From positions 1 to 64,000 of the forward strand of contig MU053196.1 of NCBI GenBank assembly GCA_013239625.1: a stretch of 64,000 bases of DNA. Direction: 5' to 3'. The position numbers were made by a program, and so were the translations under genes. Of the stretch, positions 38,601-41,600 are shown one piece after another (within the stretch, counting starts at the first letter, position 1; the number at the start of each line of letters is the position of its first letter). This DNA is from Lama guanicoe (taxonomy: Eukaryota). The notes under the pieces were generated by a model. It ran no database searches, had not been told where the DNA came from, and saw nothing but the letters and a program-made list of their open reading frames with translations.

Positions 38601-41600
38601 CTAACACAGGGCAAACTCCCCTCCCTGTAGCCTTCAGGGTAATTAGAGTAATTATACATCCTGCTCCTGCTGAAAGATACTCTGTATAATTCATTACTGA
38701 TGCTTGAACACAGATAAAATAAGACTAAATTTTTAAAAATCTTAACTACAACCATGTAAGCAAATTTAAATGAAAAAGTTTATAAAAATAGTATTTCTTT
38801 CGAGTATCATCCAAATATTAAATTCAAAGGAAAAATGAGCACTAAAGAATATTAAAATTACACATGTATTTTTCAGAACATACAGTTTATTAACAATTCT
38901 CCTCATCTAGCATAATCATGGGAAGTTCAATACCCTTCTGATTTAAGCATTTGATTTAACCATTCAGTTATTCACTTAAAAGTTGTAAGTTACATACTTC
39001 TGTTTTAACTTTCACTACGAAATTGGTTGTTAAGGTTAATCTCTGTGTCCAGACTAGAAATCTCACATTTAGAAGCCCTAGTTCTGGAACTGCCTTAAAG
39101 AATGATTAAGTGAAGAGTATTTTATATAAAGAAACATGTACTAAAAAGTTACCTTGTCCAATGCACTCATAAAGTGCTGATCACCATTCAAAACAGTGTT
39201 GATAAGTTGAACAATTTTACCGAGTACTTCCAAAACCGACTCCACAAATAGTGTTGGCATGTTTTCCTGAGCAAGGTTGCCAGCAAAGAAAGTGAAGAGT
39301 ATTTTATATAAAGAAACATGTACTAAAAAGTTACCTTGTCCAATGCACTCATAAAGTGCTGATCACCATTCAAAACAGTGTTGATAAGTTGAACAAATTT
39401 ACCGTGTACTTCCAAAACCGACTCCACAAATAGTGTTGGCATCTAAAGACATGAAATACAAAGTACAAAGCTTATTTTAAGAAGTTCAAGGATGTAATGA
39501 GGCTTAGTGAAGAACTATTTAAGAGCAAAGATTTCCCCAAGCAAATTAATGTTACACACAACACCCACCCTCAAAAACCGTTTTTAGCTAAGATGGTCTT
39601 AAAAATCTAATGCTTTGATGTTGAACTTAGTTGTCATTCAACACCAGAAATGCAGGTTCCTCTGCCAGCAGAGCCCACTGAAAACACACTTCTGCCCGGC
39701 GCTGGAATTCCGCATTGTAAGTGTAACAAGACACAGTCAGAGCACCAGGCCTCTCAGTTTCAGAGAGGATTACATAAACCAAAACAGCCTTCAAGCCACT
39801 GGAGGCGGAGAGAGGGGAGAAGTCAGAAAGCTATCATCCGTGAGAGCTGAGGCCCCGAGAGCTGGGCAGGGCATGTCCGCACGTCTCAGAGGGAAGAAGC
39901 GCCCAGCAGTGTGAAAGATGAATTTTCTCTCTTAAATCAATGGGGCTAACTGTGCAGCTGGACCAAAGACCCCGAGTCAGCTACAACGATGTGAGTCTCC
40001 TGCAAGGGGGTCCCCTCATGTTTGCTGCCCACAACTCAACACCATGCCCTGTGCCCAGTCGTCAACACCCTGAACATGAAAAACCAGTAAAAAAACCAAT
40101 AAGCCTGATAAATAATACAGGCCAGCAGACCTGAACAATACAAACTAACAGTTTTACAAAAACAGAAAGAGAAGTAGCATTTCCTGTCATATCTATCTTA
40201 TCTGTCAACCATTATGAGTAAAAACAAGGAGCACAGTCCAGCAAAACCTGCCAACAGGAGTGCACTCTGACAGGAGGGACACCCTGCTGTGAACGGCTAT
40301 CAGACTGGCAGGGGACCCTTGAGAGGAGATGTCAGGGACCTGAGTCCCTGCTGGGCACTCTGGGTGGTAAGCATGTATTTAGGGAAGAATGCTTCAACCC
40401 AGACTCGCTTCCTGGGTGATCCAATTCAGAGCATGTGAAAGGAAACCAGACTGCAAGCAGTCTGCACTAGCAATGACTGACATTGCTGCTACTCACCGAA
40501 TGCCAATGCCAGCCACACAGGAACACAGTTATTTAGACACAGAAACGTGCTTTTCTGTGAGAAGCTGGTCAGCAACTGCTAACTGGACACAGCAGTGCGA
40601 CTGAGAAGTCTGTCTCTCTCACCGATTTTCTAATAATGCGATTAATTCCAAAACGTGTCCAACACAGTCTAGGTTCAGAACATTTTAATAAAGACGCTTC
40701 ATTCGCGGGCATGGCGGGACTCCTCCCTCACGGTTTACAACAGCCAAGTCAAAAGAAAAGCCCCATGGCAGCCGAGCAGGCGCCCAGCCTGCGCGGACTC
40801 ACGTTTTCCTGAGCAAGGTTGCCAGTCGCCCGAAGGCCTTCGTCGTGGACGTGGTCCTGCAGCTCCTGAATCATGTGAGGTAGGCCGGTGGACACAGCGC
40901 GGAGGAGAACGTACATGTTCGCCATGTCTGAGGGGACAGAAATGCCATTAACAAACTTCCAAATAGTTCAAAATATTTTAATACACTAGGTAACATACAG
41001 TTCAAATGCATGATTACAGAAGGGCATGCGGGGCCCACCCTGTCACCCAGTCCTCTTCCTGGAGAGCCACATGGTGGTGGCCTGGTGGCCTTCAGGGCTG
41101 CTTCCTACCTGGTCAGGGAAATTCCCTGTTCCCACCTCTGCCCCTTTTACACAGACAGCATGGGAGACCAGTGGACTGTCTGCAACTGCAGAACCACCTC
41201 TCACCCCAAGACCCTTCATGTCAGGACACACAGCCTCTCCTCACACTGTGCCACCACCTGGCACCGCTGCCTGTCACATGCTCTACTGCAACTCCTTAAC
41301 AACTGATGGGAAACTGCCTGCTCCAGTGCCCTGACACTACTGTCACGACTGACATCCCCACGGGCAAGACCACTTGCAGCGTAAACCCGCGAGGCAGGCC
41401 CGCTGTGCAAGGGTTCCAGACAGTTCCCAGAAGCCAGGAGCTCCCTGGCGACAATGTGTCACCTAGCGTTTTGATCTCTGCACTGAGGGGTGGAAATGAC
41501 ACTTCAGTATAGTGGTTTTTAAACTTTTTATTGATGTATAACACACAGAAAAGCCCACAAACCATTTAAGTGTACATCTCAACAACCTGTCGCATGTGAA

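Follow-up and report, generated by a model that had tools for sequence, protein, structure and literature searches.

What is known of RNA-templated repair of DNA breaks in mammals comes, to our knowledge, from engineered reporters and from tumours with whole-intron deletions. In human cells this repair (RT-DSBR) is described as requiring Pol zeta but neither LINE-1 nor Pol theta, and its whole-intron deletions show a bias to introns that lie upstream of the broken site (Jalan et al. 2025, PMC12065846). The gene's own transcript is copied from the broken template strand towards the RNA 5' end. Other insertions also derive from spliced RNA. Class 2 templated sequence insertion polymorphisms (TSIP), found in humans, are described as lacking a target-site duplication and poly(A), showing end-joining features and non-templated bases at a junction, betraying their RNA origin by spliced exons and coming, by definition, from distant loci; experimental insertions of this kind range from 73 to 414 bp in the text available (Onozawa and Aplan 2016, PMC5110952). 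In mouse zygotes, too, breaks can receive inserts derived from spliced RNA by RT-product-mediated repair; these lack poly(A), show microhomology or filler, and include partial fragments of spliced Pcnt and Inadl mRNA (Ono et al. 2015, PMC4516963). The "RMDR with direct RT" model in that account has the RNA annealed to one break end and the other end closed by end-joining; the RNAs there come from other genes, use 1-7 nt of microhomology and insert in either orientation. An exon-exon junction is also the mark of processed pseudogenes and class 1 L1 insertions. Finally, false exon gains, in which a near-identical second copy of an exon appears in the same gene of a gapped assembly, are described as an assembly error (Ko et al. 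2022, PMC9516828).

A splice-tagged exon duplication in the guanaco CUL2 gene is here set against these systems. The window analysed is the whole 64-kb stretch of DNA as assembled, and all statements on structure rest on the assembled sequence. CUL2 lies on the minus strand, and the plus strand is the transcription template strand. The gene was identified by comparing the fused reading frame with solved protein chains: the best match to Cullin-2 had an E of 4.5e-19, and Cullin-2 accounted for the best 12 of the 23 sequences listed. Pfam Cullin matches were obtained for the ORF at 40752-40967, over the upstream exon, and for exon copy B (E 0.0059). The upstream exon is flanked by an acceptor, cctcag (before 40927), and a donor, gtgagt (after 40803); 40803 is its final base, with the GTGAGT donor directly after it. 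Counted from the donor of copy B, the downstream intron is now 882 nt long; under the insertion model it would have been 700 nt before the event. The features are collected in Table 1.

Table 1. Features of the CUL2 segment, from the upstream exon to the next exon in transcript orientation.
Feature	Positions	Strand	Length	Remarks
Upstream CUL2 exon ("exon 10" of the sequence-only reading)	40803..40927	-	125 nt	ends ...GNLAQEN
Intron between upstream exon and copy-B exon	39443..40802	-	1360 nt	intact in the gene, missing from the inserted copy
Exon copy B ("exon 11" of the sequence-only reading)	39335..39442	-	108 nt	MPTLF...SALDK; natural acceptor and donor
First 45 nt of downstream intron, copy B	39290..39334	-	45 nt	original right-hand side of the putative break
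Filler CAAAGA	39284..39289	.	6 nt	right junction
Upstream-exon fragment	39261..39283	-	23 nt	copy of the final 23 nt of the upstream exon; source 40803-40825
Exon copy A	39153..39260	-	108 nt	two A/T transversions; without an acceptor of its own
First 45 nt of downstream intron, copy A	39108..39152	-	45 nt	continuous with the intron remainder, 38453-39107
Next CUL2 exon	38393..38452	-		single copy

The sole near-identical local duplication of at least 100 nt in the window is a tandem pair of 153-nt units, 39108-39260 (copy A) and 39290-39442 (copy B), with a spacing of 182 nt and two differences; no N run adjoins it. Each unit consists of 45 nt of the downstream intron and the 108-nt CUL2 exon, and Tandem Repeats Finder reports a period of 182 with 1.8 copies, 98% matches and 0 indels. 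The order proposed in the sequence-only reading (intron, exon, 45 nt, linker, 23 nt, second exon) holds in the assembled window. The upstream-exon fragment agrees with its source at 23 of 23 positions, as had been claimed. Only 2.9e-5 direct repeats of 23 nt are expected by chance in 64 kb, and just two isolated exact direct repeats of at least 18 nt occur in the window, this fragment included. The first base of exon copy A is 39260, and the equivalent base of copy B comes after a TTTAG acceptor; thus the fragment is fused exactly at the splice junction, with 1360 nt skipped, again as claimed.

The left junction is seamless and filler is present at the right junction only. The filler is unlike both neighbours: the upstream exon continues TCGCCC and the intron is preceded by ATGATT. 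A likeness of the linker to AAAGAA at 39097-39102 had been pointed out, and indeed the AAAGA of CAAAGA recurs at 39097-39101, 6 nt left of the putative break. A search for a filler template, about 3 kb to either side and on both strands, gave three 8-nt and nine 7-nt matches, which is chance level. Within the 23-nt fragment, CTCAG/GAAAAC is a candidate weak acceptor, the use of which could contribute 114 in-frame nt (EN followed by the variant exon).

The exon-exon junction, shared with processed pseudogenes and class 1 L1 insertions, implies that the CUL2 copy passed through RNA. An ordinary processed pseudogene had been excluded in the sequence-only reading, rightly. No A or T run is found at 39090-39110 or 39280-39292, and thus no poly(A); the next CUL2 exon is not attached to the copy, the sequence below copy A continuing as intron; and the only candidate for a target-site duplication is the recurring AAAGA (5 nt), displaced by a 6-nt gap from its expected place. 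Unlike a processed pseudogene, the copy has no mRNA 3' end, no further exons and no intact target-site duplication, whereas it does contain intron sequence and sits inside the parent gene in the same orientation.

The copies differ at 39215 (T, against A at 39397) and 39223 (A, against T at 39405), the two substitutions (F>I and H>L) noted earlier. At the sites of L and I in copy A, a solved Cullin-2 chain carries H and F, so that the states in copy A are derived. Copy B, which keeps both natural splice sites and both ancestral residues, is taken as the original exon, and copy A as the newly made one; copy A was tried as the original and rejected on its derived residues and missing acceptor. 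Both changes are A/T transversions, separated by 8 nt; for two sites placed at random in 176 nt, a spacing this short has P = 0.089. The pair may represent synthesis errors, in which case the two changes carry no age information; the recent date that had been drawn from the near identity of the copies does not follow. Independent transversion pairs are reported to make up about 11% of SNP pairs, and clustered transversions have been tied to error-prone polymerases such as Pol zeta (PMC4158752), for which a base-substitution error rate of about 1.3e-3, with clustered errors, is given (PMC1635245).

An RNA-templated origin is the only economical reading of the assembled sequence. A jump between DNA templates would have had zero microhomology to use (...GGCAT/CTAAAG against ...CTCAC/GTTTTC), and this, with the exact fusion at the splice junction, indicates that the template was RNA without the 1360-nt intron. 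That template must nevertheless have retained the downstream intron. With CUL2 on the minus strand, reverse transcription of its sense RNA yields plus-strand DNA, the synthesis of which proceeds towards higher coordinates. The plus-strand order of 45 nt of intron, the exon and 23 nt of the upstream exon is that predicted for cDNA primed from the left break end. It agrees, together with the seamless left flank, with the earlier proposal of plus-strand priming. Since the insert is seamless on one side, it was probably primed by the break end and not captured as free cDNA.

The insertion is probably real and RNA-templated. A more specific reading, in which a break within CUL2 was extended on an RNA template and so gave rise to a real insertion in the genome, has, in our estimate, an even chance of being right. 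We propose tentatively, at a little under even odds, that it is a germline fossil of aborted intron loss, in which a break was extended by an error-prone polymerase on nascent, co-transcriptionally spliced pre-mRNA, across one splice junction, and then end-joined. To the anatomy, polarity, splice-junction tag and derived left copy that can be read from the sequence, these two readings would add a break, pairing with nascent RNA and an enzyme. A break or nick would have occurred between 39107 and 39108, 45 nt into the intron after the MPTLF...SALDK exon. Its plus-strand 3' end would have stayed paired with a CUL2 transcript from which the 1360-nt intron was spliced out and in which the downstream intron was present. 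A polymerase with reverse-transcriptase activity would then have lengthened this end by 176 nt, through 45 nt of intron and the 108-nt exon directly into the final 23 nt of the upstream exon. The new strand would have failed to anneal with the upstream exon across the break, an annealing that would delete the intron. Once released, it would have been attached to the near break end by end-joining, with 6 additional bases at the joint. The outcome would be a 182-nt insertion carrying a splice-tagged second exon copy, harmless within an intron. The break-primed, RNA-templated repair envisaged in the sequence-only reading is partly supported: its anatomy and polarity hold, but its young age does not follow.

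Set beside RT-DSBR with whole-intron deletion (Jalan et al. 2025, and the yeast precedents cited there), the CUL2 insertion has the same visible mark, as far as the available text goes, namely only a splice junction in DNA, and synthesis likewise runs towards introns upstream of the break. The copying of the gene's own transcript from the broken template strand towards the RNA 5' end is found in the assembled CUL2 sequence as well. The differences lie in the ending, the template and the setting. CUL2 keeps the intron, and only the inserted copy is without it. At CUL2, synthesis would have halted after 23 nt of the upstream exon, and joining to the near side would have produced a tandem duplication instead of a deletion. 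The CUL2 template was only partly spliced, with the downstream intron retained. The setting would be the germline, whereas theirs is tumours or Cas9-cut cells. The CUL2 insertion would be an aborted version of the RNA-templated repair with whole-intron deletion of Jalan et al. (2025), and it resembles class 2 templated insertions.

The resemblance to class 2 TSIP, as these are characterized in the text available (PMC5110952), extends to the absence of poly(A) and of an intact target-site duplication, to the end-joining features with extra bases at one junction (here the 6-nt filler), to the RNA origin marked by spliced exons (here an exact exon junction with the 1360-nt intron absent) and to the size, since 182 nt falls within the range of the experimental insertions. 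The template differs: it is the same gene, 0-1.5 kb away, and not a distant locus. With the mouse zygote insertions CUL2 has in common a partial spliced fragment at a break without poly(A), and the direct RT model described for them (PMC4516963) likewise ends in the joining of an unpaired side. In contrast to the other-gene RNAs and short microhomologies of that account, CUL2 has full complementarity in cis and an intron-retaining template. No precedent in cis was found in a literature search of titles and abstracts.

As the enzyme, Pol zeta would be favoured from the literature, with Pol theta, Pol eta and L1 ORF2p also possible. Pol theta and L1 ORF2p had been named as candidates earlier; both are kept, but the repair described in human cells needs neither and depends on Pol zeta (PMC12065846). 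The two clustered transversions in the new copy are an indirect hint towards Pol zeta (REV3L).

The serious rival is an assembly or library artefact, which we consider less likely than a real insertion. The structure would then be absent from the animal's DNA: reads from a diverged CUL2 retrocopy, or from cDNA that contaminated the data or was added on purpose, would share the CUL2 exon, an assembler or gap closer would exit the exon wrongly into the upstream exon, and the true intron-exon contig would be set beside it without merging the 153-nt overlap. Several features of the assembly would suit such an error. The scaffold is gapped, with an 87-N run at 8170-8256 between G+C-rich flanks; an N run flanked by G+C-rich DNA is typical of short-read dropout. 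A 62-nt exon stretch (39153-39214) is identical in both copies and offers the switch point that a graph misjoin requires. The length of the fragment, 23 nt, is a commonly used assembler word size (and an older default in one short-read assembler), and a contig-end effect is conceivable. Two differences in 131 nt would suit a young retrocopy, and the two changes could mark a diverged CUL2 retrocopy as the source, for an artefact as for a DNA template. False exon gains within genes, moreover, are documented in older assemblies (PMC9516828), and like them the CUL2 case is a near-identical second exon copy in the same gene of a gapped assembly.

Against this, false duplications are described as usually separated by gaps (PMC9516828), whereas what parts the CUL2 copies is 29 defined bases, with no assembly gap between or beside them. 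The closest N run, at a distance of 31 kb, is the only one in the 64-kb window. A spacer that combines a splice-junction fragment with filler is not made by duplication of haplotypes or through read errors. Assemblers of the graph and overlap types take their joins from the sequence of the reads. The filler junction offers no overlap usable by an assembler, and a 6-nt filler linking pieces that do not overlap would be hard to explain unless some molecules contained it. Reads of cDNA alone leave the two substitutions unexplained, and a retrocopy is hypothetical; we know of no CUL2 retrocopy in this genome. No other such duplication occurs in the 64 kb. Two haplotypes assembled in tandem were rejected as a full explanation, the upstream-exon fragment being unaccounted for.

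Public sequence collections were also queried. Of 24 sequencing runs listed for 12 sampled words from 39195-39320, 20 contained some part of the query and 0 contained half or more. The word shares (0.33 for 12 runs, 0.25 for 8, 0.00 for 4) are index-level values with no bearing on the insertion either way. Normally spliced CUL2 mRNA contains about one third of the query words and would yield such shares even if the insertion were absent. In metagenome contigs, the 26 nt spanning the join of exon copy and upstream-exon fragment had 0 matches. The 49-residue frame across the filler junction gave 0 candidates among proteins of similar length and 8 candidates, 0 of them significant, among longer proteins, in a collection seemingly without mammalian CUL2.

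A second rival takes the insertion as real and attributes it to LINE-1 ORF2 protein. A plus-strand nick at GATT/AAGT would start target-primed reverse transcription in cis, from an internal site of the paired CUL2 pre-mRNA, and the far end would be joined as in 5'-truncated L1 insertions. The primer strand at the putative nick has two of the four T's and the A of 5'-TTTT/A-3', so that TT/AA holds the core of the L1 endonuclease site, for which the consensus is given in PMC5110952, where ORF2p is also described as acting in trans on cellular RNAs. The AAAGA of the filler, by repeating 39097-39101, could be the remnant of an 11-nt target-site duplication. However, poly(A) and an intact target-site duplication are missing, the site has only two of four T's, and the 6 nt absent from the putative duplication would lie within it and not at an end. 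An error count of two over 176 nt would also be high for the L1 reverse transcriptase. We regard this origin as improbable.

Least favoured among the rivals, with only a slim chance, is a DNA template: gene conversion or a template switch would have patched a break in the intron with sequence from a processed pseudogene of CUL2 at another place in the genome, one that already carried the exon-exon junction and both substitutions. This would account jointly for the splice junction and the two differences, but a processed pseudogene does not have the 45 nt of intron, so that an extra, separate duplication step is needed, and the seamless left junction becomes a coincidence. A pure DNA template switch was rejected, as it would need exact exon edges at both ends with zero microhomology.

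Should the insertion prove an artefact, it would usefully illustrate the way in which reads from a retrocopy or from cDNA can bring a splice junction into the parent gene of a draft assembly. If instead it was copied from CUL2's own RNA, as we favour, the heritable scar would show that RNA-templated repair runs in the germline, that a gene's own incompletely spliced transcript serves in cis, that synthesis proceeds towards upstream introns, and that end-joining, besides annealing, can finish RNA-templated repair. Such a scar would report the splicing state of the template, the polarity, the tract length (176 nt) and the in vivo error rate of the reverse-transcribing enzyme. The contribution of RNA-templated repair to evolutionary intron loss is stated to be undetermined in the available text of Jalan et al. 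(PMC12065846). A tandem copy of an exon, marked by the 3' end of the exon before it, would be a new signature of RNA-templated break repair, searchable in normal germlines and in any annotated genome, and the question of intron loss would thereby become countable.

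CUL2 lies on the minus strand and contains two 153-nt segments, copies A and B, spaced 182 nt apart, as seen on reading 38900-39700 and in a repeat search. Tandem Repeats Finder scores the pair as 1.8 copies of a 182-nt period, with 98% matches and no indels. Each copy carries a 108-nt open exon, whose protein reads (H/L)GK(F/I) around the variable sites, with a GTAAC donor behind it, plus 45 nt from the start of the downstream intron; ahead of the copy B exon come a TTTAG acceptor and the upstream intron. Compared base by base, the copies differ twice (39215 T vs 39397 A; 39223 A vs 39405 T). 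The spacer between them consists of an upstream-exon fragment and a CAAAGA filler. Because 40803 is the final base of the upstream exon, adjoining its GTGAGT donor, and 39260, the first base of exon copy A, is directly joined to the fragment, the join is the exact spliced junction; the reading frame is kept. The 43-residue fused frame matches solved Cullin-2 chains (best E 4.5e-19; Cullin-2 takes the best 12 of the 23 matches listed), and Pfam Cullin matches fall in gene order on 5 of the 104 minus-strand open frames scanned. The next exon occurs once only, so the downstream intron was 700 nt long before the event. All the sequence statements of the sequence-only reading are true for the assembly (window read, repeat search and base comparison), among them the 23-nt match that skips the intron and the lack of a further exon and of poly(A) on copy A.

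Positions of the CUL2 duplication and of other elements in the window (upstream and downstream in transcript orientation)
Feature	Position	Length (nt)	Remarks
81-nt CUL2 intron	37506-37586	81	minus strand
Next CUL2 exon	38393-38452		
Copy A	39108-39260	153	
Upstream-exon fragment	39261-39283	23	identical to 40803-40825
Candidate weak 3' splice site	39267-39283		minus strand, CTCAG/GAAAAC
Filler	39284-39289	6	
Copy B	39290-39442	153	
Upstream intron	39443-40802	1360	
Upstream exon	40803-40927		
N run	8170-8256	87	G+C-rich flanks
Isolated direct repeat	21089-21109, 21132-21152	21	43 nt apart, unlike flanks
Local direct repeat	52375-52407		spacing 95
Local direct repeat	60518-60569		spacing 139
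Local direct repeat	63820-63851		spacing 66

The chance expectation for a 23-nt direct repeat in 64 kb is 2.9e-5, and here both ends of the match fall on two exon edges. Isolated exact direct repeats of at least 18 nt number just two in the window, this match and the 21-nt repeat. The three short exact local direct repeats (32-52 nt, G+C-rich) may be minisatellite-like arrays. A jump between DNA templates, leaving the exon at its first base and landing on the final base of the upstream exon, would have had zero microhomology (...GGCAT/CTAAAG vs ...CTCAC/GTTTTC), which argues for a template without the 1360-nt intron; judged from the sequence, the template of copy A and the fragment is thus RNA or a copy of RNA. 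Its state, with the downstream intron kept and the upstream intron lost, agrees with a transcript that was nascent or not fully processed.

Copy A, tagged by the splice junction, is by its sequence the derived copy, since its L and I stand at positions occupied by H and F in the solved Cullin-2 chain, and copy B holds the natural acceptor. The two substitutions that had been claimed (39215, 39223; F>I, H>L) are indeed there. With CUL2 on the minus strand, transcription reads the plus strand as its template, and cDNA of CUL2 sense RNA would be plus-strand DNA running from low to high coordinates. The observed order (45 nt of intron, exon, upstream-exon fragment) is the one this model requires, which bears out the polarity proposed earlier; the model forbids the mirror arrangement, because the break end on the other side is unable to pair with sense RNA. 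No seam shows at the left junction, and foreign bases occur at the right junction only.

The insertion is probably real and RNA-templated. RNA-templated break repair by a cellular polymerase, ended early, has about an even chance of being the mechanism. Synthesis would start where the plus strand's 3' end, at 39107, was paired with the CUL2 transcript; it would copy 45 nt of intron and then the exon, and would next enter the upstream exon, since the intervening intron was already spliced out. The new strand would get only 23 nt into that exon. The intron would have been lost had the strand annealed to the upstream exon across the break, 1.5 kb off; joining to the near break end with the 6-nt filler would produce the tandem duplication instead. 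Pol theta reportedly has reverse-transcriptase activity. RNA-templated repair, which works alike, was Pol zeta-dependent and LINE-1- and Pol theta-independent in the assays described by Jalan et al. (2025, PMC12065846); whole-intron deletions upstream of the cut are given there as the mark of spliced templates, whereas no intron is lost here. In mouse zygotes, Cas9 breaks are described as acquiring spliced-RNA-derived inserts without poly(A), with microhomology or a few bases of unexplained source, modelled as "direct RT" from one end and end-joining at the other (PMC4516963). Such joins are also described in human class 2 templated insertion polymorphisms (PMC5110952), which differ in having a distant template. 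An in-cis, partly spliced, duplication-type scar had no precedent in the literature searched, whose coverage was limited.

Both substitutions are A/T transversions 8 nt apart within copy A; two random sites among 176 copied bases are this close with P = 0.089. Independent SNP pairs are both transversions in ~11% of cases, and close linked pairs are described as transversion-enriched in a pattern tied to Pol zeta (PMC4158752). Purified yeast Pol zeta is reported to make base substitutions at ~1.3e-3 and clustered errors (PMC1635245). The cluster, considered post hoc, is mild evidence for one error-prone synthesis event rather than slow decay. Should the changes be synthesis errors, the near identity carries no age information, and the recency once read from it falls away. 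The filler, unlike both the upstream-exon continuation and the preceding intron bases, had been likened to 39097-39102; its AAAGA does recur exactly at 39097-39101, with 6 nt between it and the inferred break to its right, and could be a staggered-break remnant, templated filler or chance. Other nearby 7-8-nt matches were only at chance level.

An assembly or library artefact is the strongest rival and a serious one, though less likely than a real insertion. A young CUL2 retrocopy could provide the junction and both substitutions, and the required switch point lies within a 62-nt stretch common to both copies; cDNA reads would leave the substitutions unexplained. The 23-nt fragment has the length of a word size in common use among assemblers, but the filler junction has no overlap that an assembler could use, the surroundings of the site are free of N runs, and the copies are the only near-identical local duplication of at least 100 nt in 64 kb. 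Gapped scaffolds such as this one belong to a class with documented false exon gains, in which a gap usually separates the copies (PMC9516828). The sole N run of the window, with no sequence duplicated across it, points to an assembly scaffolded from short reads, with G+C dropout. In a public run index no run contained at least half of 12 sampled words, a result that alone is evidence neither way; a metagenome contig scan for the 26-nt exon copy/fragment junction gave 0 matches, and two protein searches with the 49-residue frame across the filler junction gave nothing significant in a collection seemingly without mammalian CUL2. An L1 ORF2p event in cis is improbable; the poly(A) and intact target-site duplication of L1-type retrocopies are both missing. 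A DNA patch from a CUL2 retrocopy is very improbable.

Elsewhere in the gene, the 81-nt intron between exons ...KDVFQK and FYARML... has a GC donor (AAG/GCAAGT) and a CAG acceptor; as it is stop-free and divisible by three, its retention is predicted to add 27 residues in frame. At the duplication, the possible weak CTCAG acceptor within the fragment, with a pyrimidine-rich stretch ahead made of intron piece and filler, would define an intron of only 68 nt from the copy B donor; its use could add 114 nt in frame (6 + 108). Use of the copy A donor would add 182 nt, with a stop after three codons (GTA ACT TTT TAG). Normal CUL2 splicing should persist, because acceptor and donor are intact in copy B, as are 45 nt of downstream intron.
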